This document shows, piece by piece, positions 3,842 through 33,023 of a stretch of DNA of 64,000 bases; position 1 is the first letter of the stretch; every line of letters begins with the position of its first letter. This stretch comes from Patescibacteria group bacterium (GTDB lineage Bacteria; Patescibacteriota; Patescibacteriia; Magasanikbacterales; UBA922): positions 52,300 through 116,299 of the forward strand of contig JAHJIX010000017.1 of the NCBI GenBank assembly GCA_018823045.1. Reading direction: 5' to 3'. A program made the translations under genes and the position numbers. The notes below the pieces were generated by a model. That model was not told the DNA's origin and ran no database searches. It saw only the letters and a program-made list of their open reading frames with translations.

Positions 3842-4095
3842 TACATGCTCGCTAATGTTTTAAAAATTTGTTTTATTTTTTTTCGATCTTCATCATTGGT
3901 AATCACTTCTGAAGAGCTAAAAATTTCTTCCATATACGCAACCCCTATACCATGAAAGGCTCTGTGAACCGCTTTCATTTGTGTCATTATTTTTTCATAT
4001 TGTTTGTGATCTTCTTCAACCATTTTAATAATACCATCGATTTGACCACGTACAATGCTGAGCCGACGACGAATATTCTTTTTATGTAAACACAT
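3841..4095 (-). CDS. CsoR/RcnR/FrmR-family (DUF156) transcriptional repressor
   Basis: 84-aa helical protein (RRRLSIVRGQIDGIIKMVEEDHKQYEKIMTQMKAVHRAFHGIGVAYMEE) matching the RxxRIxGQxxGIxxM signature of the CsoR/RcnR fold. It is the first gene of the repressor-HlyD-RND operon and is preceded by a palindromic operator. Confidence 0.6.
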   Translation of the reverse strand: MCLHKKNIRRRLSIVRGQIDGIIKMVEEDHKQYEKIMTQMKAVHRAFHGIGVAYMEEIFSSSEVITNDEDRKKIKQIFKTLASM

Positions 4096-4130
4096 ATATC
4101 TTTTATTTACTATTATTTAAGATACGCTAT

Positions 4131-4149
4131 TATACCCTATAGGGGTATA
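4131..4149. promoter_or_regulatory. Palindromic operator TATACCC-N-GGGGTATA (CsoR-type GC-core inverted repeat) upstream of the repressor-efflux operon
   Basis: Sequence tataccctataggggtata lies ~35 bp upstream of the repressor start. It resembles known CsoR operators (ATACCC…GGGTAT). Confidence 0.55.
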
Positions 4150-4232
4150 TGGTGTCAAGTGTGTACACTGAATAAAAACCTACAGAACAAATACTCTCAA
4201 TGTATTTTTGTTGCGGAACGTACATTAAACAC

Positions 4233-4296: not shown

Positions 4297-5445
4297 TTAT
4301 GCTACATGCACCGGAGAGAGATTGTGCATCGTATGCTCTTTTTTATACACTGAGATGATTTCTTCAATCACACGATCCCAGGTATATTCTTTTTCAATGA
4401 TTTTTTTGTATTGTTGTCCTTTTTTGTTCAACACGGCTTGTTCTGTTTGAAGTATTATATCAAGCAAACTTGTCAATTGCTTGATACTTCCTGCACGATA
4501 CAATGCTTCTTTATCTCCGAGTAAATACTCATGCTCCGGAATGTCTGACAATATCATAGGGAGACCATAACTCATCGCTTCAAGCACTACGATTGGTAAT
4601 CCTTCATTAAGTGAAGGGTGCACATAAAGTGATGCATGTGAGAATAATGTATAAAGATCGTTCCCGGATTGAAATCCAGTAAAGATAATACTCTTATCCT
4701 CTGCTGCCAAACGATGCAACTCCTGCACATAGGCATTCGTATGGTATCCATCTCCAACAATAACTAATTGCTTATCTTTTCCTGCCGTTCTTTTTCCCCA
4801 TGCTTTAATTAAATGATGCATTGCTTTATGTGGAATCAGACGACTCACTGCTAAAACATAATTACCTGATTGAATCTTATGTTTTGTAAGGACATCAGTT
4901 TCTTCTTTTTTTGTTGGAATATACACTGCATTTGGAATAAACACCGCATCAGTATCATACACATCACGAGCGTACTGTTGAATCGTTTTAGATACCGCAA
5001 TCGTCATATGTGGAAAATGACATGACGCCCACTCACCAACTTTAAGCATAGTGCGAGCAAACAATCCCCATTTTTCATGTTTTCTATCAATCGAATGGAA
5101 TGTTGAAATCACACGAATCTTTGGGGTAAATACACGAGGAATCCATGCTAAAAGTGATGGCCCAACTCCATGATAATGAATCACATCAACATGTTCTTTC
5201 ATTGCATGAATCGTTGACGTAAAGGTATGAGTCAAGGCATCTAAATGTTTTGTTCGAATACTTTTTGTAAAAATGGTACGGACACCATCAACTTCTGTCG
5301 TTTCTTTACCGGTATACCATAAACGGCTATACACAGTCACATCCATGCCTTCTTTTTTTAAACGCATAGCAAGATCGTGAACGTGTTTTTCAACGCCACC
5401 ATGTACAGCAGGAATACCCTTTTGTCCGATCATTGCAATACGCAT
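4297..5445 (-). CDS. Glycosyltransferase family 4 (GT-B fold, group 1)
   Basis: 382 aa. N-term MRIAMIGQKGIPAVHGGVEKHV; C-terminal domain has the EGLPIVVLEAMSYGLP motif (EX7E-like) typical of GT4 enzymes. Confidence 0.8.
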   Translation of the reverse strand: MRIAMIGQKGIPAVHGGVEKHVHDLAMRLKKEGMDVTVYSRLWYTGKETTEVDGVRTIFTKSIRTKHLDALTHTFTSTIHAMKEHVDVIHYHGVGPSLLAWIPRVFTPKIRVISTFHSIDRKHEKWGLFARTMLKVGEWASCHFPHMTIAVSKTIQQYARDVYDTDAVFIPNAVYIPTKKEETDVLTKHKIQSGNYVLAVSRLIPHKAMHHLIKAWGKRTAGKDKQLVIVGDGYHTNAYVQELHRLAAEDKSIIFTGFQSGNDLYTLFSHASLYVHPSLNEGLPIVVLEAMSYGLPMILSDIPEHEYLLGDKEALYRAGSIKQLTSLLDIILQTEQAVLNKKGQQYKKIIEKEYTWDRVIEEIISVYKKEHTMHNLSPVHVA

Positions 5446-10948: not shown

Positions 10949-12451
10949 CTACTCCCATTTATCAGTAAGAAAATCACCTTTTTTCTTTTCTTCTCTCCAA
11001 AAGAGTACCATAATCCCAATCAAAATCCAAATATAAAACATTTGTGTTCTAAATTCAAAATACGGTCCAAAAAAACCAATGACCATATATCCAACTAAGG
11101 TACCCACTAATCCGGTTGCAAAAATATATAATATATTTTTTTCTCGCTGTCTTTGACGCACATAGAGTGCAGCACGAATACTTGCCCCCCAAAGTGCGAT
11201 ATAAGCAAGAAGACCAATAGTCCCAAGCTCTCCCCAGAGGCTCATCCAACTATTATCTATTTGCCCATATTTATTTTCAATACCAAATGGCATTTTTAAG
11301 CGATCATATGTTTCTGTGTTTAATAGCGCTGCTGCGACTCCTCCACCATAATTACCTGGCCCCACTCCAAAAAATGGATGGTACTGCACCACCATACGTG
11401 GCGTATTGATAATAAAGAAAATTCGTCCATATCCTTCATAACTTTCTCGCCATGCCCGCAAACTCACTGCCTCAAGCATACGCTCTGGAATAGATTGGTT
11501 TGGTGTCTCGACTATATGCGAAACATTTTCTTGTACCATGACAAACATACCAATATAGCCAATCATACAGGCCGCAAAAGCTCCAACAGCAATCATGATT
11601 CTTTTATCTTTCATGAGAATAATTCCCATGGTCATCACCGCTGCTACATATCCAATCCAACTTGCTCGTGAATATGTTAGCACTAAGGCAAGAATACCAA
11701 TTGCACTTGCAACCCAATACAAATAATATTGAGTACTCTGTTTTTTAAGTACATATAAAAATGGAAACAGCATGCTCAATCCAATAGCAAGTAAACTTCC
11801 TAAACGATCATAACGCCCCATAGTAGCAAAAACACGACTGCCAGGAGTCCAAAATTGCTCAATGCCACCCAAAACTGCGGTATTCCCAATATTAACCACA
11901 GCTGTAGAAAATAAATAGGCATCAAGTCGTCCACCTGCAGCGTATTGGAGTAAGCCTAATACAGCTTGAAAGAGTATCATGACTCCTCCTAAATATAGCA
12001 ATCGGATAAGAATTGGCTTTTCTAGTCGCAAAAATAATAAAACAAAAAATATTAGACCAAAGCGGAGTATTTGCCGCATACCCAATAACCAAACAAATGG
12101 TTCATATTGATTGAGTATAAGCGAGATACAGGCAAACAAAACAAATAGAACAAACCACTTATTGAGTGGATTTTTAGGAAGAATTTGCCGTGCATTTCGT
12201 ATATAATGCACCCACGCACCAATAGTTAAACTATACAATAATAATTCTGGAATATATTTTATATATGCGTAATAATCGATTGGCGCATATTGCAAAATCA
12301 GACTTTCAAACGGAAACCAAATAATAAGTGCATAAATAATCCAATATGTTCTTTTTATTTGAAACAAAAAGAATAGCCCAAAGAATGCTGTAAATAGTAA
12401 CAGACAAAATAAAATAATATTTGGTGGTAGGTATGCAAGAATGGCTGACAT
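10949..12451 (-). CDS. O-antigen ligase/polymerase family (Wzy_C domain) integral membrane protein
   Basis: 500 aa, ~12 TM helices, with the characteristic LTYSRASWIG motif and a large periplasmic loop. Confidence 0.7.
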   Translation of the reverse strand: MSAILAYLPPNIILFCLLLFTAFFGLFFLFQIKRTYWIIYALIIWFPFESLILQYAPIDYYAYIKYIPELLLYSLTIGAWVHYIRNARQILPKNPLNKWFVLFVLFACISLILNQYEPFVWLLGMRQILRFGLIFFVLLFLRLEKPILIRLLYLGGVMILFQAVLGLLQYAAGGRLDAYLFSTAVVNIGNTAVLGGIEQFWTPGSRVFATMGRYDRLGSLLAIGLSMLFPFLYVLKKQSTQYYLYWVASAIGILALVLTYSRASWIGYVAAVMTMGIILMKDKRIMIAVGAFAACMIGYIGMFVMVQENVSHIVETPNQSIPERMLEAVSLRAWRESYEGYGRIFFIINTPRMVVQYHPFFGVGPGNYGGGVAAALLNTETYDRLKMPFGIENKYGQIDNSWMSLWGELGTIGLLAYIALWGASIRAALYVRQRQREKNILYIFATGLVGTLVGYMVIGFFGPYFEFRTQMFYIWILIGIMVLFWREEKKKGDFLTDKWE

Positions 12452-12499
12452 AGTGACATCATAGATGTCATCTTTAATTCTTATTTACAGACAATACTC

Positions 12500-12623
12500 A
12501 CGTCATTGCGAGGTGGCGTGAGCACACCGCGGCAATCCCGTTGTTAAAGAAAAACAATTGTTTTAAGACATAAACAAAGGGATTGCTGCGCCCCGTTTTA
12601 CAAGACGGAGCTCGCAATGACGT
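12500..12623. repeat. Nested-palindrome intergenic repeat element (copy C)
   Basis: ACGTCATTGCGAGGTGGCGTGAGCACACCGCGGCAATCCC…GGGATTGCTGCGCC…GCTCGCAATGACGT. It has the same outer and inner inverted pairs as copy B, with a longer AT-rich central loop. Confidence 0.85.
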
Positions 12624-12713
12624 AAAGTACTGTAGCACTCAAATTAAGGATGACAGTAATATTGTCATTATACCAAAAATAAGCTCTTTTGAGAAGAAAA
12701 AATAAGTATTATA

Positions 12714-12752
12714 AAACCCTGTCTCCGAAGAAACAGGGTTTTGTTTTTTTTG
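12714..12752. terminator. Intrinsic terminator hairpin (AACCCTGTCTCCGAAGAAACAGGGTT + T8)
   Basis: 11-bp stem followed by TTGTTTTTTTT on the plus strand. A weaker U-run is on the minus strand downstream of the TSP3 gene. Confidence 0.5.
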
Positions 12753-12885
12753 ATCTCATACCACCGAAGTGATTTGAGATACATACCACAGAGCTTTTAG
12801 GTAGCAATGTGGCTAGAGTTACGTGTGCCCTACTCACTCAAACCTAATTTTGAGTGGATCGTTGGGTAGCACTGATGAGTATTAT

Positions 12886-14805
12886 TTATTGATTGTCGCC
12901 GTTGTGGCTACAACCAACAGCGCCTGAAGGCAGCGGTGCGCAGGAATAATCCCCGTTCACCGTGTGGCATATGCACGTGGAAAAGTCCCAAGTGGACACG
13001 CTACACTCGCCTTGCTCGCTCCAGTGCCGGCCGTCAGAAACGGCCTCGTTACGAGAAGCACCTCGGACGGGCCACCACTCAAGGTAGGCCTGGTTACCGG
13101 GGGCGCTCGCGGACGCCGTGATAGTCACTGCAAATGAATTGCAATTGCCAGCTTGAGCGATCTGGACGCAGAGGTCCAATACACAGCTCTCACCGTCAGC
13201 GCAGTCAGCATCGTCCATGCAGGTATCCGCGGGAGGCGGAACCTCACAGAGATTACTGACGCAAACTTCGCCATCACCCTGGCAGGGGTTCTGCGGGTCG
13301 CAGTAGCCGGGGATGGGTAGATTTGCGCAGACACCGCTGTTGCAGGTGTCGTTGGTGCTCGGATCGGAGTCATCACAGTCCGCGTCGGTGACGCAGACTG
13401 CACAACCCTCGTTGATCTCACCGTCACAGTCGTTGTCGGCCATGTCATCACAGAGCTCAGGAGCTCCTGGGTAGACACTCGAGTTTCCGTCTTGGCAATC
13501 GACGTCGGCAGTAAAGCCGTCGCCGTCCAAGTCTTCCTCGCCGGGAGTGAAATCACACGCGCCGGGGGCGTCTTCAACGCCGTCACCGTCACAATCGCTG
13601 TCACAGGCGTTGCCGAGGCCGTCGAGGTCGAGGTCTTCTTGACCGGGGTTGGACACGTTGGGGCAGTTGTCGAGGACGTCGGGCACGCCGTCGCCGTCGA
13701 GATCGCTCTCACAAGCGTCGCCGATGCCATCGCCGTCCTGGTCGCACTGGACCGGATCCGTTGTCGGATCATCGTCGCAGTCGGAGGGGGCGTTGGCTAC
13801 GTCAGGGCAGTTGTCTTCGTCGTTGAGGACGTCATCACCGTCGAGGTCGCCGTCGCAAACGTCGCCGTCGCCGTCACCGTCCGTGTCGAGCTGGTTACGG
13901 TTGGCGAGGATACGACAGTTGTCGTCATCATCGTTCCCAGCGATGCCATCGTGGCCATCGTCAGGGATGCGGTCGTTGTCGTCGTCATCGTCACAGGCGT
14001 CGCCGAACTCGTCGTCGTCGCTGTTCAACTGGTCGACGTTGTGGATATCGGGGCAGTTGTCCACGTCGTTGTCGTGGTCATCGCCGTCACGATCGGTGTC
14101 ACAGACATCGCCGAACTCGTCGCCGTCCATGTTCTCTTGGTTGGGGTTCGCGGTGTCGGGGCAGTTGTCGATGCCATCGCCGATGCCATCGCCGTCACGA
14201 TCGTCCTCACAGACGTCGCCAGTGCCGTCACCGTCGGTGTCAATCTGGTCGGCGTTGGGGACGAGGCGGCAATTGTCGTCGTCTTCGTTTCCGTCGACGC
14301 CGTCATCACCGAAGTCAAGGACGCCGTCGTTGTCGTCATCGTCGTCGCAAGCGTCGCCGAGATCGTCGTCGTCGGTGTTCGCTTGCATCGGGTTGGGCAC
14401 GTCGGGGCAGTTGTCGTCATCGTTGCCGAGGGCGTCGTTATCGCGATCGCTGTCGCACTCGTCGCCGATGCCATCGCTGTCGATGTCGATCTGCCGAACG
14501 CACATGTTCTCGACGCAGAAGATCGGAGCAGCGAACTTGGCGCCATCGGGCCCCACCATGATGGCGGGGATGTCGATGCAGTCGTTGGCGTCGGCGCAGG
14601 CCACGGGGGCCTCGTCGACGAGCGCGGGCTCAGCGGGGGGGTTGGCGGTGCGGGGGCAGTTGTCAGCCCCGATGGGGATGCCGTCGGGGGTCAAGGCCGC
14701 CTCAGAGGCGGACGTGGAAGAGGGACCCTGGCCGGTCGCGCTACACGCGACGGCGAAGATCGAGAAGAGAAACAGGGCGATCATGCGCTGCATGACTTTC
14801 TCCAT
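12886..14805 (-). CDS. Thrombospondin type-3 (TSP3) repeat calcium-binding lipoprotein, Asp-rich
   Basis: 639 aa. Signal peptide + lipobox (LFSIFAVAC|S). More than 10 tandem repeats fit the TSP3 consensus DNCPxxxNxxQxDxDxDGxGDxCDxDxDNDG (e.g. [63 protein letters not shown]). Cys-rich C-terminal domain. ~65% GC. Confidence 0.8.
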
Positions 14806-14882
14806 TACTGGTATCGTGTATGATCTTTATGCTTAAAAAGATTACTTCATATCACGATACGTTAACAAAACCAGAAACTTTT

Positions 14883-15677
14883 CTAGAACGTCCAGCCGGT
14901 AGACACACCTAAGCGTGTCGCACCGAAACCGGATTCTTGCGTCGGAACCATGGGCGGCTCTGTCCCTGCTGGGAAGAGACCGACCTGGGGGCGTTGCGCC
15001 ACCCACTCAGAATGACCGAAACCGACTTGAAGGCCGATCCGAAAACCAGAGTTAAACAGACGCTCAACCTGCAGCTCGCCCATGTGGGTCTGCAACAGGT
15101 CGCCCTCGATATCAGCAGTTTCATCCCAAATGAGAAGACCTCGATACCCAAGCGCAAAGCGCCAGGCATCGATTCCTCGATACTGGGTCCCGAGAAACAC
15201 CGAAGTGCCTCCGGGTTTGAAACCGTCCATGTAGGCCGGAGCCCACGCGGTCGTTCCACGTCCATACCAGTTCTCGGCTATGCGGAGGTTTAACTCCAAA
15301 CCAAGTTCCAATAAAAACGCGTTGTCACCGTTGTCTGGTGTGATCAAGGCCACGGGGGTTAACCCGAGTCCCCAATCCCACTTTTTCTCCAAAGTCTCAA
15401 CCCTCTTTACAATCTGAGGGTCGGCTTGTGGCGGGGGCGGAGGAACTGGACATGAAACGATTTCAGAGGCCGTCTGCTCGTCAGAGCAGATGCCCGTTAT
15501 GCGAACCTTCTTACCAGGCGCACACTCGTTTAGGTCAAGGACCTTTTCCAATACCTCTCCATCCGGACAGGTAAGCTTAACTTTCCAACTGTTTTGTGCG
15601 TTAACCGGGTTCAGCCCGGCACTGATCACGGCCAGCATGGCCGTGACGAAGAGCGCCTTAATGGTGCTCCTTATCAT
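14883..15677 (-). CDS. Outer-membrane beta-barrel-like protein (signal peptide, C-terminal …TGWTF)
   Basis: 264 aa. N-terminal signal peptide (MIRSTIKALFVTAMLAVISAGLNPVNA). Alternating amphipathic beta-strand pattern in the C-terminal half, ending in an aromatic residue (F) as in OMP barrels. Immediately upstream of the TSP3 gene (operon-like). GC-rich. Confidence 0.5.
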   Translation of the reverse strand: MIRSTIKALFVTAMLAVISAGLNPVNAQNSWKVKLTCPDGEVLEKVLDLNECAPGKKVRITGICSDEQTASEIVSCPVPPPPPQADPQIVKRVETLEKKWDWGLGLTPVALITPDNGDNAFLLELGLELNLRIAENWYGRGTTAWAPAYMDGFKPGGTSVFLGTQYRGIDAWRFALGYRGLLIWDETADIEGDLLQTHMGELQVERLFNSGFRIGLQVGFGHSEWVAQRPQVGLFPAGTEPPMVPTQESGFGATRLGVSTGWTF

Positions 15678-15727
15678 ACCAACCTCCTTGCCAGCCGTTT
15701 AGGTGGCGGGGTTTATGTGTTTGGTAA

Positions 15728-15770
15728 CTACAGGATTAAAGAAAGTATATTACTTTGCTTAATCCTGTAG
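15728..15770. repeat. Perfect 12-bp inverted repeat CTACAGGATTAA…TTAATCCTGTAG with a palindromic 19-bp loop, in an AT-rich spacer inside the GC-rich island
   Basis: Direct reading of both arms. No T-run follows. Confidence 0.6.
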
Positions 15771-16026
15771 TCCAAATACAATTGGTAGATATGATGTATA
15801 TTAGTTTAATACTCATCAATTGTAATGATCGATTTAGGATGTGTTAAATCCTCAATCATCATTTAACTTGTCATAAGCATAAATGATGATAGTTGGATCC
15901 TCTATACAAGAAAGTATAGAGGTTAAGGCTCATCTAATAGTTGATCTACGTTGTGGACGTAATTCAATTATATAACGATGCTATCACGCGCCTTGAGGTG
16001 AGTGTGATAGTATTTGAAGATAGAAA

Positions 16027-23146: not shown

Positions 23147-23288
23147 ATGTCTTTGAAGTTAGATAATAATTATATATACGATTATTTTATTGTAAACGGC
23201 TTACTATAGCATAAAAAAGCCCTTTTGTCAATTATAGCATGTTTTGGGTGATATGAACAAGCAAAAAAAGTCTGATTGTGCTTGAGGA

Positions 23289-23385
23289 TGGGATTGCTTC
23301 GTCATTCCGCTTCGCTCCATTCCTCGCAATGACGTGCTTTTATTACGTCATTGCGAGCCCTGTGAAACAAGGGCGCGGCAATCCC
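23289..23385. repeat. Nested-palindrome repeat, circularly permuted copy D (GGGATTGCTTCG…CCTCGCAATGACGT | ACGTCATTGCGAG…GCGGCAATCCC)
   Basis: The same four arm sequences as copies B/C, with outer and inner pairs swapped. It abuts the GIY-YIG gene. Confidence 0.8.
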
Positions 23386-23685
23386 TTACTTCATATCCTC
23401 AATCCATTGTTTATATAAATCCTCCCATTTAGGATTGTTTTTATTAATCAATAACTCTTTTTTTACACGCGAACCTGATTTTAACTGTTTTTCACGACTG
23501 ATTGCATCTTTTATACTGTCATATGTTTCTACATGTACCAACATATGTACATTATATTTTTTTGTAAAATGAGAACCGATTCCTTGTTTATGTTCAATAA
23601 TTCTTTTCTGTATATTTTGTGTTACTCCTACATATAATACGGTCTTTCTAAAATTTGTTAAAATATAGGTATAGTATGTATCCAT
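23386..23685 (-). CDS. GIY-YIG nuclease family protein (small YhbQ/UPF0213-like)
   Basis: 99 aa. YTYILTN…VLYVGVTQNIQKRIIEHKQG matches the GIY-x10-YIG motif with the downstream R and E. Confidence 0.7.
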   Translation of the reverse strand: MDTYYTYILTNFRKTVLYVGVTQNIQKRIIEHKQGIGSHFTKKYNVHMLVHVETYDSIKDAISREKQLKSGSRVKKELLINKNNPKWEDLYKQWIEDMK

Positions 23686-23710
23686 ATTTAATGTTTAGTG
23701 AGTTGTTGTA

Positions 23711-23757
23711 TGGGATTGCTTCGTCATTCCGCTTCGCTCCATTCCTCGCAATGACGT
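23711..23757. repeat. Half-element copy E of the repeat family (identical to first half of copy D)
   Basis: TGGGATTGCTTCGTCATTCCGCTTCGCTCCATTCCTCGCAATGACGT. It supplies the last 11 codons and the stop of the KilA-N ORF. Confidence 0.8.
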
Positions 23758-24104
23758 GGTAAAAAAAAGGGGTCGAATTCAAAAGCAATGTCTTTGTGTG
23801 CAAAAGTGCCACCATATCGACCCGCTTTTGATACGATACCTATGGCATTAACACCTTCAATCCATCGTTTTGATGTCATGACAAAATGATTTAACCCAGC
23901 CTCCATTCTAAACCCAGGGTTATTAATTTGCTCCCATAACCCCAAAAACTGCAAAGTATTTTTATTCCTTAACCAATTTTTAATGACATCATCCATTCTT
24001 TTTGCATCTTTAAATCGTGCAATATCAGTTAACGAAATAAAGTCATGCTCATTTTTAACAAAAAAATTGACATGAATATCTTTTACAATAAGATCTTGTT
24101 TCAT
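23724..24104 (-). CDS. KilA-N domain protein
   Basis: 126 aa. FISLTDIARFKDAKRMDDVIKNWLRNKNTLQFLGLWEQINNPGF resembles the KilA-N/APSES-type DNA-binding domain. The C-terminal PRHCEEWSEAE* is encoded by the repeat element. Confidence 0.5.
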   Translation of the reverse strand: MKQDLIVKDIHVNFFVKNEHDFISLTDIARFKDAKRMDDVIKNWLRNKNTLQFLGLWEQINNPGFRMEAGLNHFVMTSKRWIEGVNAIGIVSKAGRYGGTFAHKDIAFEFDPFFLPRHCEEWSEAE

Positions 24105-27701: not shown

Positions 27702-28154
27702 TTGTATATGCCTACTCTTGCCAAAAACAAAAAAGCATTTTTTGACTATACGATCCTCGAGAAATTTGAGGCGGGTTTAGTATTGACCGGGCAAGAAGTA
27801 AAATCGCTACGTACAGGCAATATTCGCCTTACTGGGGCCTATGTGACTTTTCACAAAGATAGCCCACAATTAACCAATGTACATATTCCACTGTATAAAT
27901 ACGCAAGCCCAAAAGAAGAATACGATCCTGAACGATCACGGGCGCTCTTATTAAAGAAAAAAGAAATAGCTTATTTAAGAGGAAAAACACAAGAAAAAGG
28001 CTTGACAATAGTGCCACTTTCAGTATATACTAAAGGACGAAAAATAAAGATAGAAATCGGTATTGCTCAAGGAAAAAAACAATACGACAAACGACGTGCA
28101 ATCCAAAAAAGAGATCAGCAACGAGAAGATCGACGAATGATGAAAGAAATGTAA
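27702..28154 (+). CDS. smpB: SsrA-binding protein SmpB
   Basis: 150 aa. KKAFFDYTILEKFEAGLVLTGQEVKSLRTGNIRLTGAYV matches SmpB (NRKARHDY…E-EAGI-L-GTEVKSLR). Confidence 0.85.
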   Translation: MYMPTLAKNKKAFFDYTILEKFEAGLVLTGQEVKSLRTGNIRLTGAYVTFHKDSPQLTNVHIPLYKYASPKEEYDPERSRALLLKKKEIAYLRGKTQEKGLTIVPLSVYTKGRKIKIEIGIAQGKKQYDKRRAIQKRDQQREDRRMMKEM

Positions 28155-28282
28155 CTTTTTTCAAAAAGTTCCTTACAATTTTACCCATACAATAAAGCAC
28201 TTGTCCTTGCGAAAAAAGACATAAGCTCTGCCACCATTCTCATGTAAATATATTGCATACGATTGTTTTGTGGCAACAGCCG

Positions 28283-28314
28283 GTCACGTAAAAGCCCTAC
28301 CGGGCTCACGTGAC
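28283..28314. repeat. 31-bp hairpin motif GTCACGTAAAAGC…GCTCACGTGAC (inverse orientation of the motif found downstream of ssrA)
   Basis: Its arms are the reverse complements of GTCACGTGAGC / GCTTTTACGTGAC at 28788-28818 and 28893-28923. Confidence 0.6.
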
Positions 28315-28342
28315 GCTCAAAAAAGCTTACGCTTTTTTTCGC

Positions 28343-28760
28343 GGGGATGACAGGCTTCGATAGACGGCAACGTTATCTATGTATGCATACCAAGAGTGTC
28401 ATCTCTTGTAAATCAATGACAAATCGATACGTGTAAACGTTATCAGTCGAGTAAAAGGCGCTATTGCTAACGCATTTAGCATGCCACAACTCGCATCTGT
28501 TGTTGCCTAAATAAGGCTAAACGACCATCGCCATGAAGATACTCGCTATTCATATCCGCGGTGTCAACCATACAGAGTTCGTCTCTGTGAGCGAGCGTAG
28601 AATATATGTGCTGACTGACGCGTATATTTGAACTTCCATCAGTATGTAGTGTGTTTCTTTTTGATATTTTTAAAAAAGCACATGAACCAACAAAATATCT
28701 ATGTATGTAGAGTACCTAGCTAACCCGATCTAGACCCGGGTTCAATTCCCGGCATCTCCA
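28343..28760 (+). ncRNA. ssrA: tmRNA (ssrA)
   Basis: 5' end GGGGAUGACAGGCUUCGAUAGACGG matches the tmRNA 5' consensus (GGGGxUGA…GGxUUCGA…ACGG). 3' end GACCCGGGUUCAAUUCCCGGCAUCUCCA has a T-arm and an acceptor 3' strand complementary to the 5' GGGGAUG, with the G3·U pair. It lies immediately downstream of smpB. A candidate tag frame ends …GCA UCU GUU GUU GCC UAA-A-UAA (28496-28512). Confidence 0.75.
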
Positions 28761-28785
28761 CGAAAAATGGCGCTAGCTATTTTTC

Positions 28786-28974
28786 GTGTCACGTGAGCAC
28801 GAAGTGCTTTTACGTGACCAGTATAAACATACCCGTCCTAGCACGGCGCCATCTCGTGGCGAGCCAATCAAAATGATACAGCAATATTAAGTGTCACGTG
28901 AGCACGAAGTGCTTTTACGTGACCAGTATAAACATACCCGTCCTAGCACGGCGCCATCTCGTGGCGAGCCAATC
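28786..28974. repeat. Tandem direct repeat, 2 × 84 bp separated by 21 bp, each starting with a GTCACGTGAGCACGAAGTGCTTTTACGTGAC hairpin
   Basis: Copies at 28786-28869 and 28891-28974 are identical by eye. They lie immediately 3' of ssrA and 5' of a GIY-YIG gene. Confidence 0.85.
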
Positions 28975-29002
28975 CAACACAAAACAATAAGGAGGAACAC
29001 AT

Positions 29003-29260
29003 ATGTATATTATCTATTTTCTAGAGTCTATCCAAGATAATACAAGACATTATATTGGATATACAACAAATCTAACACAACGCATAAAAACACATAACAA
29101 CGGTTCTGTTTCTTCAACAAAAAGATATAGACCCTGGAAAATAATCTATGCAGAAGCATATATACACCAACAAGATGCACGTGGAAGAGAAAAATTCCTT
29201 AAAAGTGGATCTGGATGGAAATACTTAAAAAAACAGCTAACACATCACTTTAACACTTAG
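29003..29260 (+). CDS. GIY-YIG nuclease family protein (second small YhbQ-like paralog)
   Basis: 85 aa. MYIIYFLESIQDNTRHYIGYTTNLTQRIKTHN (GIY…YIG, R, E/H). Strong SD AAGGAGG 8 nt upstream. Confidence 0.7.
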   Translation: MYIIYFLESIQDNTRHYIGYTTNLTQRIKTHNNGSVSSTKRYRPWKIIYAEAYIHQQDARGREKFLKSGSGWKYLKKQLTHHFNT

Positions 29261-29264
29261 ATCT

Positions 29265-29813
29265 ATGCGAATATCCCGAAAAAAACGCCCAAAGAAATCC
29301 CTAGTCCCTCGTTATAACCTGAATCACAGTATTACAGCAAAAGAAGTACGTGTGCTTGGGGCTGATGGATCAAATGTTGGTGTTATGACTCTATCAGCTG
29401 CGATTTCAATGGCAAAAGACCTAGAACTCGATTTGGTAGAAATTAACCCAAAAGCACTCCCTCCTGTAACACAAATCCTTGATTTCAAGCATTTCAAATA
29501 CCAAAAAGAAAAAGAAATGCGAAAACAAAAAAATAATTCTCATGTAAGCGATATAAAAGGAATTCGCCTTTCTATGCGTATTGGTGCAGGTGATATGGAA
29601 ACACGAAAAAATCAAGCAGTAAAATTTCTTGATCGTGGTGATAAAGTAAAGGTTGAAATCATCCTTCGTGGTGCAGAAAGATACAAAACTCCCCTTGCAT
29701 TTGACGTTATTGGTAAATTTTACACCTTATTACATGAAGAAATGAACGTAAAATACGAACAAGAAGCCCTTCGTCAAGGAAACAAAATTACAGCAATTAT
29801 TATAAAATCATAG
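29265..29813 (+). CDS. infC: Translation initiation factor IF-3
   Basis: 182 aa. N-domain ITAKEVRVLGADGSNVGVMTLSAAISMAKDLELDLVEINPKALPPV and C-domain VKVEIILRGAERYKTPLAFDVIGKF are IF-3 hallmarks. Confidence 0.85.
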   Translation: MRISRKKRPKKSLVPRYNLNHSITAKEVRVLGADGSNVGVMTLSAAISMAKDLELDLVEINPKALPPVTQILDFKHFKYQKEKEMRKQKNNSHVSDIKGIRLSMRIGAGDMETRKNQAVKFLDRGDKVKVEIILRGAERYKTPLAFDVIGKFYTLLHEEMNVKYEQEALRQGNKITAIIIKS

Positions 29814-30684: not shown

Positions 30685-30935
30685 ATGTTCGCACATGAGC
30701 AGGAGCACCCCCTCCTTTGCTCCTTTGCTCTGTGTGAACATCATGTTGATCAATACAATCAAACAAAGGTCTCGAGAATGTTCGCACATGAGCAGGAGCA
30801 CCCCCTCCTTTGCTCCTTTGCTCTGTGTGAACATTCTCGAGATCTATAACAATAAATGCCCACTGTATGTTCGTACATGAGCAGGAGCACCCCCTCCTTT
30901 GCTCCTTTGCTCTGTACGAACATACAGTGGGTTTT
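30685..30935 (+). repeat. Three tandem copies of a 57-bp hairpin-forming element (ATGTTCGCACATGAGCAGGAGCACCCCCTCCTTTGCTCCTTTGCTCTGTGTGAACAT). The third is extended and followed by T7, acting as the rplT operon terminator.
   Basis: Copies at 30685-30741, 30778-30834, 30867-30923, with spacers of 36 and 32 bp bounded by TCTCGAGA. The last copy sits in the stem CCCACTGTATGTTCG…CGAACATACAGTGGG + TTTTTTT. Confidence 0.8.
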
Positions 30936-31222: not shown

Positions 31223-31296
31223 GGATCGGTAGTTCAACTGGTTAGAGCACCGCCCTGTCACGGCGGAAGTTGCGGGTTCGAGTCCCGTCCGGTCCG
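31223..31296 (+). tRNA. tRNA-Asp (anticodon GUC)
   Basis: Cloverleaf: acceptor GGATCGG/CCGGTCC; D-arm GTTCAACTGGTTAGAGC; anticodon loop CTGTCAC; T-arm GCGGGTTCGAGTCCCGT; discriminator G. CCA is not encoded. Confidence 0.85.
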
Positions 31297-32847
31297 CTCA
31301 ACGGAAGGCAAAGCACCCGAAAGGGTGTTTTTTGCTTTTGTTAAGCTATTTTCTGAAGTTCTAAAGCTTGTATTACGTTTCATTATCATTTCGAACGGTT
31401 TTCTATACTCTATAACTAATTTCTTATCGATAAGCTGACAGTTCGAAAGTAAATATCCAAGTAGCTCCCTTTTCTCTTCATCATTAGCCATACGGTATAA
31501 TTTAGAAGCCTTATGAGCTAATTCTAATATACCTGAACCATAACGATAATAATCAATATCAGCTTGCGTATAATTTGAAATACGACTATCTAAATCTGTT
31601 ACCTGCTCCGTATACTCATTAAATTTTCTATTATAAAAATCCTCAGTAATATTATTATCTAACTTATCCTCATAAAGTCTATCGAGACGTGTCATTAGTT
31701 TTATCTTTCTATCCTCTAATCGTTTACGTTCTCTATCCGTTGTATCACGTTTAATATCCAATGAATCTTTTAATGCTTCGGTAATATAGTCAACGGTATC
31801 TTTTGGCAATTCAATATCTTTTAATGCTTGCTCTATCTGCTCGTTAATAGCATTCTCATTAACTGGCTTTTGTGAACACTCACTCTTATATTTTGTACAA
31901 CGATAATAAACATACTCCTTACCTGAACTCTTTGTTTTCTTATCTCCCGTAACAGTTCTATGACACTCTCCACACTCAAGTAACCCTTTAAATGTAAAGT
32001 GCCTAGTCCCCCATTTGGCTTGCTTTCCTCTATTTTCTCGACTATCCAGTATATCTTGTACATTCTTCCATAATACTTTATTGATAATCGGCTCATGTAC
32101 TCCTACATGAATTTTATCTTTCCAAATGAAATCACCGTAATAAATAGGATTACGTAAAATCCTTTGAACAGAGCTTTTACTTATTTTTTTTAGTTTAGAG
32201 CTTCTCGGAAAATTTTCAGGTATAACAATACCCTCCTTATACAATTCATCAATAAGACTCTTCAAAGAATATCTACCAGTAGCAAATCTCTCAAACATAG
32301 CTATTACTAAATCTCTATTCAATTCATCTACTACAGGACCCGCCTTATCGGCTATCTTCCCCATCTTGTAACCTAACGGGGGCATACTACAAGGATATAT
32401 TCCCTGCTCTGCTTTTTGTTTGAGTCCTTTCTTTACTTCTTCACTCAAATTATCTACATAGTTTTTTGCCATCAAGACCTTAATTCCATGCATGAACTTT
32501 TGATGAGAAGAGGCTTCTTTTCCAATAACTTCATTTTCTTTAACCAAAAAAACCGTAACATCAAGCTCGTCTATCAAAACGTAATCTTTAAAGTTACGGT
32601 ATAGTCTATCCGTCTTTTCGACAAGAATTGTATTTACATCTTTGTGTGACTTTACATAGTCCACCATTGCCCCAAAATTGCTCCTACCGGAACTTTTAGC
32701 CGTCTCATCGTCCTCAAACTCCTGTACTATACTAAAGCCATTCTGACGTGCAAATTCTTTAAGTAACTTCCTCTGAGCAGGTATTGAATACCCCTCTTGT
32801 TTTTGTTCACGAGAAGATACACGTACGTAAATGACGGCTTTTTTCAT
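31258..32847 (-). CDS. Large serine recombinase (resolvase domain + recombinase domain + zinc ribbon)
   Basis: 529 aa. Begins [12 protein letters not shown]…GYSIPAQ (catalytic Ser motif) and has a Cys-rich zinc ribbon (CGECHRTV…[11 protein letters not shown]). The ORF's last ~13 codons overlap tRNA-Asp (31258-31296), so the real stop may differ. Confidence 0.75.
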
Positions 32848-33023
32848 ACTTTAGTCTTCTCTAAAAAATCAGCAAAATCTTCTGTGGAAATCCTAAACTC
32901 CTTACCTAACTTATTAGCTTTTAGCTTACCCGCTTCTATATATCTATAAACTGTCATCTTTGAAATTCTTAATTTGCTTGCTATTTCTTCAACTAAATAA
33001 AAATCTTTATCTATTTCTTTCAT
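32844..33023 (-). CDS. Small helix-turn-helix DNA-binding protein (excisionase/AlpA-like), overlapping recombinase start by 4 nt
   Basis: Manual translation: [59 protein letters not shown] (59 aa). HTH is EIASKLRISKMTVYRYIEAG. Below the ORF-track size cut-off. Confidence 0.55.
   Translation of the reverse strand: MKEIDKDFYLVEEIASKLRISKMTVYRYIEAGKLKANKLGKEFRISTEDFADFLEKTKV

Follow-up and report, generated by a model that had tools for sequence, protein, structure and literature searches.

Free-standing GIY-YIG homing genes (phage T4 Seg; "intronless homing") are open reading frames (ORFs) wedged between conserved genes and patchily present in close relatives, with a nuclease gene that is more conserved than its flanks and with co-varying flanking DNA. 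Repetitive extragenic palindromes (REP), bacterial interspersed mosaic elements (BIME) and REPtrons, which join REP to the REP-associated tyrosine transposase (RAYT), consist of short, imperfect palindromes whose stems show compensatory changes; they occur inverted and in tandem, vary in copy number and have a nuclease gene beside them. Here we describe a locus that shares these traits with both systems, in a bacterium of the Patescibacteria group (assembly GCA_018823045.1, contig JAHJIX010000017.1, positions 52,300 to 116,299; the window is this whole stretch of 64,000 nucleotides (nt)). In this locus the transfer-messenger RNA (tmRNA) gene ssrA is flanked by structured units and followed by a mini gene for a GIY-YIG protein of 85 amino acids (aa). 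We give about even chances to the reading that units and gene form a lineage-specific cassette, prone to gain and loss, for which tRNA-like genes serve as landing pad and as source of transcription.

The locus also differs from each of these systems. Compared with Seg-type genes, its product is 85 aa long without a DNA-binding domain and is nearer to Slx1/UPF0213 than to I-TevI/Seg, a structured unit and a tRNA-like gene always precede the ORF, the setting is chromosomal in Patescibacteria, and the nuclease is putative; the sporadic distribution at one conserved intergenic site by which homing genes are recognized was found for the cassette as well. Unlike REP/BIME and REPtrons, the units are undispersed (three in 64 kb, all at ssrA) and confined to the ends of tRNA-like genes, their neighbor is a GIY-YIG gene and not a Y1 transposase gene, and each consists of two hairpins and a box instead of a single REP; inspection by eye showed no evident target-site duplication at unit ends. 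As in the leader-trailer stems of rRNA operons, which are cut by RNase III, the 5' and 3' flanks of a stable RNA are complementary in this window over about 60-100 nt and extend the terminal helix, but here the two sides show no co-evolution, and relatives can do without either of them. The position at the ssrA 3' end is shared with genomic islands (attL/attR), whereas direct repeats of the ssrA 3' end and an integrase are absent and the insert measures only 0.5 kb. In tRNA-mRNA co-transcripts ("tRNA punctuation", E. coli tRNA-tufB), as here, a tRNA-like gene lies between protein genes and its excision would make mRNA ends, and in one relative (L004; L-numbers denote loci) infC follows ssrA by 13 nt; unlike those transcripts, the junctions carry repeated hairpin units and there is an extra nuclease gene. 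No description was found in the literature of a GIY-YIG cassette linked to tmRNA, Patescibacteria or UPF0213/YhbQ, or of a promoter within smpB; the group I introns treated in a 2026 paper, which lie in tRNA genes of Patescibacteria, are a different feature (PMC13011429). The configuration is new; its themes (free-standing GIY-YIG genes, REP-like hairpins, tRNA-linked transcription) are known.

Structured units and a mini GIY-YIG gene beside ssrA

Loci of relatives were retrieved through SmpB, through the ssrA 3' end and through homologues of the ORF downstream of ssrA, and were compared with the following features of the window:

27708-28154, + strand: smpB (148 aa; PF01668, E 1.5e-51), 188 nt upstream of the tmRNA gene
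28002-28031, + strand: TTGACA-N18-TATACT within the smpB codons for GLTIVPLSVYT, with 11/12 the highest-scoring of the promoter-like sites in the region
28204-28227, + strand: leader segment complementary to 28324-28347 (leader 3' end and first tmRNA bases), an inverted repeat of 24 nt, 79% complementary
28283-28314, - strand: hairpin A of a solo mirror unit in the pre-tmRNA leader (model R1, 41.1 bits on the - strand)
28315-28342, - strand: linker and hairpin B (AAAAAAGC-TTAC-GCTTTTTT) of the mirror unit, from folding; ends 4 nt before tmRNA +1
28343-28763, + strand: ssrA, a standard one-piece tmRNA gene (Rfam RF00023 and ARAGORN)
28433-28510, + strand: tag frame VNVISRVKGAIANAFSMPQLASVVA + TAA (coding 28433-28507, stop 28508-28510), from translation, alignment with seven relatives and the Rfam alignment
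28762-28785, + strand: hairpin B' (GAAAAATGGC-GCTA-GCTATTTTTC), terminator-like (fold -17.6 kcal/mol), starting on the last ssrA bases
28786-28869, + strand: unit 1, exact 84-bp copy, with hairpin A' (28788-28818), spacer and box GGCGCCATCTCGTGGCG (28845-28861)
28870-28890, + strand: 21-nt spacer, read as the degenerate B' of the second unit (AAAATGATACAGCAATATTAA; direct repeat AGCTATTTTTCGT versus AGCAATATTAAGT)
28891-28974, + strand: unit 2, exact 84-bp copy, with hairpin A' (28893-28923) and box (28950-28966)
29003-29260, + strand: mini GIY-YIG gene, 85 aa, catalytic domain only (PF01541, E 1.2e-14, 54.8 bits)

The motif GTCACGTGAGC..GCTTTTACGTGAC had exactly three matches in the 64 kb and none in 100 shuffles. 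They lie at 28283-28314 (- strand), 28788-28818 (+ strand) and 28893-28923 (+ strand), as the initial annotation had it: once upstream in inverse orientation and twice downstream, bracketing ssrA. A covariance model run with filters off found no further copy in the 64-kb window. Judged from the aligned relatives, this 31-nt motif is the middle hairpin (A) of a modular unit of about 105 nt that consists of hairpin B, hairpin A and a box. The earlier suggestion of a duplicated regulatory structure was close in spirit to this result. In hairpin B/B' the last bases of the tRNA-like gene take part in a CAC/GUG lower helix; above it come a GA/GA internal loop and an A-run/U-run stem, and this upper stem resembles an intrinsic terminator. 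Hairpin A is built of an outer stem of 7 bp, an inner stem that varies and, next to a UU bulge, a G.U pair that is conserved. The last part of the unit, after a spacer, is the sequence-conserved box (GGCGCCATCTCGTGGCG..GCC).

The unit was found in at least 12 related lineages, with full trailer units in L003, L092, L093/94, L097, L106, L109, L110, L113, L114 and L117-119, and with mirror units 5' of ssrA in the window, L003, L010, L092, L113, L114 and L117. Throughout about 0.7 Mb of related loci every strong unit match adjoins a tRNA-like gene, and the unit starts one nucleotide past the end of the acceptor helix on the 5' and 3' sides alike. Hairpin B' is kept in L083, L003, L092 and L101. 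Homologous copies of the upstream mirror hairpin A, with compensatory changes, occur in the same six relatives that carry mirror units (L003, L010, L092, L113, L114, L117). The mirror linker and hairpin B module adjoins tmRNA +1 in relatives and tRNA-Asp +1 in L110 and L092, where a mirror unit stands immediately 5' of tRNA-Asp, preceded in L110 by a good promoter. Decay was seen as well: hairpin A is partly lost in the upstream copy of L110, and the mirror unit of the window retains only hairpins A and B, its box having decayed. An equivalent of the leader hairpin formed by the 24-nt inverted repeat (GCGAAAAGTG..CACTTTTCGC|GGGG) occurs in L083, a relative without the cassette.

The stems are conserved as structures and the box as a sequence. 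The outer stem of hairpin A was fully paired (100%) in each of 13 copies; two-sided changes have left pairing intact at three of the seven pairs, and the covariation score was reached by none of 500 shuffles. The stems of B vary among genomes (GC, GGGC, GCAGC, GTGGCGTAAC) and their pairing is always kept. The box core CTCGTGGC was invariant in 22 copies from relatives, without compensatory change; for this reason the box is taken to act as a sequence motif, and a hairpin under structural selection was rejected for it. The idea that the box is a remnant of the tmRNA 3' end would have only about 9 of 12 like bases to go by. The unit also has an intrinsic sense: in 18 of 20 copies, upstream ones included, the trailer sense gives hairpin A the more stable fold, because of the conserved G.U pair beside the UU bulge, and the GA/GA loop of B is present only in that sense. 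Known RNA families did not account for the units, since a permissive-threshold Rfam scan of 28100-29100 returned the tmRNA only and left them unmatched at E <= 10, and with neither an L20 leader nor a transposase-associated RNA rising above noise. Scanning viral contigs with the 16-nt box gave 10 matches, all considered chance because none had a hairpin A nearby. Two other readings of hairpin A were discarded. The conserved GTAAAA(T/G) was rejected as the -10 of a promoter for want of a consistent -35, a candidate TTGnnn being seen by eye 19-20 nt away in some genomes only, and the internal loop of the hairpin lacks the G.A pairs after the bulge that a kink-turn would have.

The initial annotation had described a perfect tandem of two 84-bp repeats downstream of ssrA. 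The two copies (28786-28869 and 28891-28974) are indeed exact, but they are not head to tail, being separated by 21 nt; the Tandem Repeats Finder reported 28786-28974 with a period of 105, 1.8 copies and 100% match. The 21-nt spacer resembles neither the flank ahead of copy 1 nor that behind copy 2, an arrangement that one duplication of 105 bp cannot produce; a fresh simple tandem duplication was therefore rejected. At the place equivalent to the spacer, L106 has a full second B'. Two older tandem units kept identical by recombination would fit better.

The GIY-YIG ORF is preceded by a strong Shine-Dalgarno sequence (AGGAGG, 28990-28995) and stops 4 nt before infC (29265-29813). Its catalytic domain takes up residues 1-69 of the 85, and a separate DNA-binding domain is lacking; among structures in the Protein Data Bank, those closest to it in sequence are the single-domain UPF0213 proteins (1zg2, 1ywl) and SLX1. 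Homologues at 65-74% identity all occupy the smpB-ssrA-GIY-infC-rpmI-rplT slot. Remoter ones (53-57% identity) follow tRNA-Arg, tRNA-Phe and tRNA-Gln genes on the same strand at a distance of 100-460 nt, with a B'-like or A-type hairpin in between. In all, 8 of 8 sampled homologues (53-74% identity) were found on the same strand 3' of a tRNA-like gene at 100-460 nt (ssrA in four cases, tRNA-Gln in two, tRNA-Arg and tRNA-Phe in one each), and this linkage is far above chance from tRNA gene density. The layout of the cassette is one or two units plus the GIY-YIG gene, directly 3' of a tRNA-like gene.

Presence and copy number of the cassette vary among relatives. The closest relative (L083, SmpB 80% identical) has B and B' only and no cassette, so that ssrA runs straight to infC, and cassette-positive and cassette-negative loci are interleaved in the SmpB tree. 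The GIY-YIG proteins have a mean identity of 70%, against 62% for SmpB and 60% for IF3. In the pair L113/L114 the figures are 94% for GIY-YIG against 65% for SmpB and 59% for IF3, with about 86% DNA identity in the GIY-YIG gene versus 60-75% in the flanks. L117, L118 and L119 have the same GIY-YIG protein and yet one, one and two units, respectively; L106 and L113 have two diverged units each.

Other genes of this kind were met apart from the cassette. A second mini GIY-YIG gene lies in the window at about 23386-23684 (- strand), with no tRNA nearby and flanked by perfect 49-nt direct repeats (23288-23336 and 23710-23758), each with a hairpin. In L117 (4444-4956) several GC-rich hairpins, all small, interrupt a tRNA-Asp-like sequence; after it come a GIY-YIG gene (4624-4893) and an intact tRNA-Asp (4884-4956), as though a tRNA copy had been displaced and was decaying beside a GIY-YIG insertion. 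Unrelated-looking GC-rich hairpins and remoter GIY-YIG genes stand 3' of ssrA in L007, L020, L025, L047, L073 and L006. The ORF at this position in L101/L108 is not a GIY-YIG gene; from its translation we presume it to encode a four-helix-bundle protein of the rRNA-intervening-sequence type. In general, the 3' flank of ssrA seems to act as a hotspot for small genes of selfish appearance.

A proposed cassette prone to gain and loss, and its rivals

On the favored reading, ssrA would be transcribed from a promoter embedded in smpB. RNase P would cut at 28343, and an endonuclease cut after the discriminator would free the tmRNA, since the CCA is not encoded. Hairpin B' would end most transcripts and so punctuate the stable RNA, and in read-through RNA B'-A'-box would form the structured 5' end of the GIY-YIG-infC message. 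Read-through would thereby supply expression of the GIY-YIG gene and, here, of infC too. Gain and loss of the cassette, in this genome wedged ahead of infC-rpmI-rplT, would resemble those of a selfish gene of the free-standing homing type. The upstream copies would be inverted solo derivatives, which, as a speculation, may have arisen by template switching across the inverted repeat of the acceptor stem.

What carries this reading is the anatomy of the unit, its conservation, the covariation of its stems, its distribution and its variation in copy number; transcription, termination, processing, nuclease activity and mobility are deduced. Several points weigh against it. The 85-aa protein has no counterpart of the DNA-binding domain of the known sequence-specific GIY-YIG homing enzymes, and the upstream mirror copies would be transcribed antisense to the unit and have no functional explanation in it. 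The three unit copies in 64 kb all adjoin ssrA, so this is not a dispersed repeat. The SmpB tree rests on 148 residues and is weakly resolved. Orthologues linked to ssrA are always in the same slot and the GIY-YIG gene is under purifying selection (94% protein versus about 86% DNA identity in L113/L114), and both facts also fit a domesticated host gene that was lost several times.

This last explanation, which we regard as possible though clearly less probable, would make the units host regulatory RNA, vertically inherited as cis-elements of the host (terminator, protection of mRNA ends, or an infC-rpmI-rplT operator) beside a domesticated GIY-YIG gene, with repeated loss and no mobility. The constant slot and operon order of the ssrA-linked cases, with the GIY-YIG ORF abutting or overlapping infC, the purifying selection on the protein and the stem covariation, which shows selection on structure, speak for it. 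The hairpins lie, moreover, at 1-5 nt from the predicted RNase P and 3' cleavage sites, and 5'- and 3'-terminal stem-loops at such positions protect mRNA ends. The same explanation is at odds with the occurrence of unit and GIY-YIG gene after tRNA-Arg, -Phe and -Gln genes that are not upstream of infC, with the complete absence of the cassette from the closest relative, and with a GIY-YIG gene that is more conserved than its housekeeping neighbors. Nor does any Rfam family, the L20 leader included, match the units at E <= 10, and the mirror copies retain the G/UUU and GA/GA asymmetry of the unit without adaptation to the strand that is transcribed.

A bolder version of the cassette reading, to which we attach a rather low probability, is that the unit and its Slx1-like nuclease constitute a new minimal mobile element, a functional analogue of the REPtron, whose nuclease reads DNA structure (the hairpins, or the base of a cruciform formed by the acceptor stem of tRNA-like genes) and not sequence. 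A structure-recognizing nuclease would explain why units stand where mature tmRNA and several different mature tRNAs begin and end, mirrored and with the same 1-nt offset, and also why the cassette hitch-hikes on tRNA-gene transcription.

It is improbable, in our view, that the inverted leader and trailer copies serve to pair in the primary transcript, as a long extension of the acceptor stem that RNase III would cut, as in rRNA operons, to free the pre-tmRNA from the smpB and infC messages. In the window, about 60 nt of the leader can pair with the trailer: the fold of 28270-29002 joins 28282-28342 to 28762-28819 in both the minimum-free-energy and the centroid structures (z -8.7), and the leader-trailer duplex has -71.8 kcal/mol (z -11.8; -56.8 and z -5.8 in L003). 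The linkers are mirror-conserved too (ACTCAAA in the leader, TTTGAGTG in the trailer). Comparison between genomes, however, gave duplex energies that are no better within genomes (mean -99) than across them (-94.6 +/- 22), and selected pairing was rejected on this ground. Hairpins A and A' of L114 and L003 have different, locally compensated stems that are mismatched across the long helix, and where B varies it does not change in step with B'. Either partner can be missing, as the trailer unit is alone in L093 and L106, the leader unit is alone in L010, and the tRNA-Asp of L092 has a leader unit but an ordinary terminator downstream. In the window the local folds come close to the duplex in stability (-75.4 versus -82.7) and would form about 420 nt earlier in transcription. 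Since the comparative data lend no support to selection for pairing, the complementarity is best seen as a by-product of two homologous units in opposite orientation.

The exact 84-bp duplication is very unlikely to be an assembly artefact. The copies are 100% identical and a Logan contig (L002) ends inside the first of them, as would be expected of a real repeat too, whereas an independent public assembly in NCBI (L001, GCA_018824665.1) carries both copies with the same sequence, the 21-nt spacer is unique sequence, and two-unit arrays also occur in L106, L113 and L119. Finally, the att-like remnants of a degraded island that the initial annotation had considered are scarcely credible: ssrA 3' ends are classic integration sites and a gene for a large serine recombinase is found at a distance of 2.3 kb (31258-32847), but the repeats are inverted where att sites are direct, repeat searches show only inverted copies across ssrA and tandem units and no copy of the tmRNA 3' end downstream, there is no integrase between smpB and infC, the recombinase gene overlaps tRNA-Asp and belongs to another insertion, and comparison with relatives shows the three-part unit kept at the same place across many lineages and also beside tRNA-Asp, -Arg, -Phe and -Gln.

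The tmRNA gene, its tag and its probable promoter

The tmRNA gene and the smpB-ssrA pair are ordinary, and their identity, strand and approximate ends agree with what had been annotated. SmpB of the window is identical to the protein annotated as SmpB in the Patescibacteria metagenome-assembled genome (MAG) GCA_018824665.1, and its closest homologues bear Magasanikbacteria names. ARAGORN placed the tmRNA at 28343-28761 on the + strand. The RF00023 match (28343-28763, same strand; 96.6 bits, E 2e-36, gathering score 47) was complete over model positions 1-374 and not truncated, and the 5' and 3' ends form the tRNA-like domain; the 3' CCA is not encoded and the sequence reads ..CTCCACGA. A permuted tmRNA, which had been left open, is excluded by this end-to-end match and by a score of only 11.5 bits over 17 nt for the permuted model RF04321 (gathering score 47). 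The gene is contiguous, with no sign of a group I intron, and Rfam gave no intron-family match in the window. The gene order is smpB-ssrA-GIY-YIG-infC-rpmI-rplT, and between ssrA and the next tRNA-Asp gene the only ORFs are GIY-YIG, infC, rpmI and rplT.

The tag was found to be longer than first proposed. ARAGORN gave AIANAFSMPQLASVVA, which begins at the next in-frame GCU. The alignment of relatives and the Rfam consensus, which sets the resume codon GCa on GUA of the window (28433-28435), give the longer VNVISRVKGAIANAFSMPQLASVVA. This position reads GTA AAC in the window versus GCA AAC in 7 of 7 aligned relatives, and the base is the same in all three assemblies. A valine resume codon GUA in place of the usual GCN is rare. 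The C-terminus ...LASVVA followed by TAA-A-TAA stands as annotated, but it is not atypical: tags of relatives have 24-26 residues of the form ANVISRVKGAIAQAFSVPAFAPAVA (that of the closest relative, L083) and end in AVA, VAA or VVA, and the VVA end is typical of this Magasanikbacteria clade.

The promoter-like site inside smpB was evaluated by a codon survey of 68 Patescibacteria smpB genes, with the same genes as background, and the choice of codons that preserves the two hexamers proved nearly invariant. At this site the leucine codon is TTG in 66 of 67 cases (19% in the background), the threonine codon ACA in 45 of 68 (26%) and the tyrosine codon TAT in 66 of 68 (66%), and where the next codon encodes threonine it is ACT in 51 of 52 (28%). 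Synonymous sites within the 18 nt that separate the hexamers vary freely. The site is probably a conserved dual-coding promoter of ssrA, in which case the upstream mirror unit would belong to the pre-tmRNA leader. The gap of only 13 nt between ssrA and infC in L004 suggests that co-transcription of the two genes is the ground state of the clade.

Neighboring features and implications

Other features of the window lie outside the smpB-infC interval. Between rplT and tRNA-Asp, 30685-30923 (+ strand) contains 2.6 tandem copies, with a period of 89, of a long hairpin whose core GGAGCACCCCCTCCTTTGCTCC has a C-rich loop resembling an anti-Shine-Dalgarno sequence, and a T-run follows the last copy. 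The core occurs once in L117 (about 4090-4150), behind TTGACA-17-TACACT, and the hairpin is a candidate small RNA. The gene for the large serine recombinase (529 aa, 31258-32847, - strand) reaches into the 3' end of tRNA-Asp (31223-31297) and is followed by a small excisionase-like ORF (32844-33023); a recombinase is present at the equivalent place in L111. This arrangement suggests an element integrated into tRNA-Asp. At about 12000-16000 the GC content rises to 49-55%, against 35-38% outside this region; the GC-rich island has tandem repeats of 108 nt and less at 13788-14373 and could be foreign DNA or a repeat-rich gene.

Two results bear on tmRNA biology independently of the cassette. The tag reported by ARAGORN can come out truncated where the resume codon is not GCN, which matters for tmRNA annotation, and the promoter within the coding sequence of smpB offers a testable model for ssrA expression across the phylum. 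If the cassette reading is true, Patescibacteria would carry a compact selfish or semi-domesticated cassette of about 0.4-0.5 kb for the 3' flanks of tRNA-like genes, which would mark a source of assembly breaks and of copy-number variation and would account for the recurrent unannotated GC-rich hairpins beside tRNA and tmRNA genes in these MAGs. It would also represent a new route by which GIY-YIG genes persist in highly reduced genomes.

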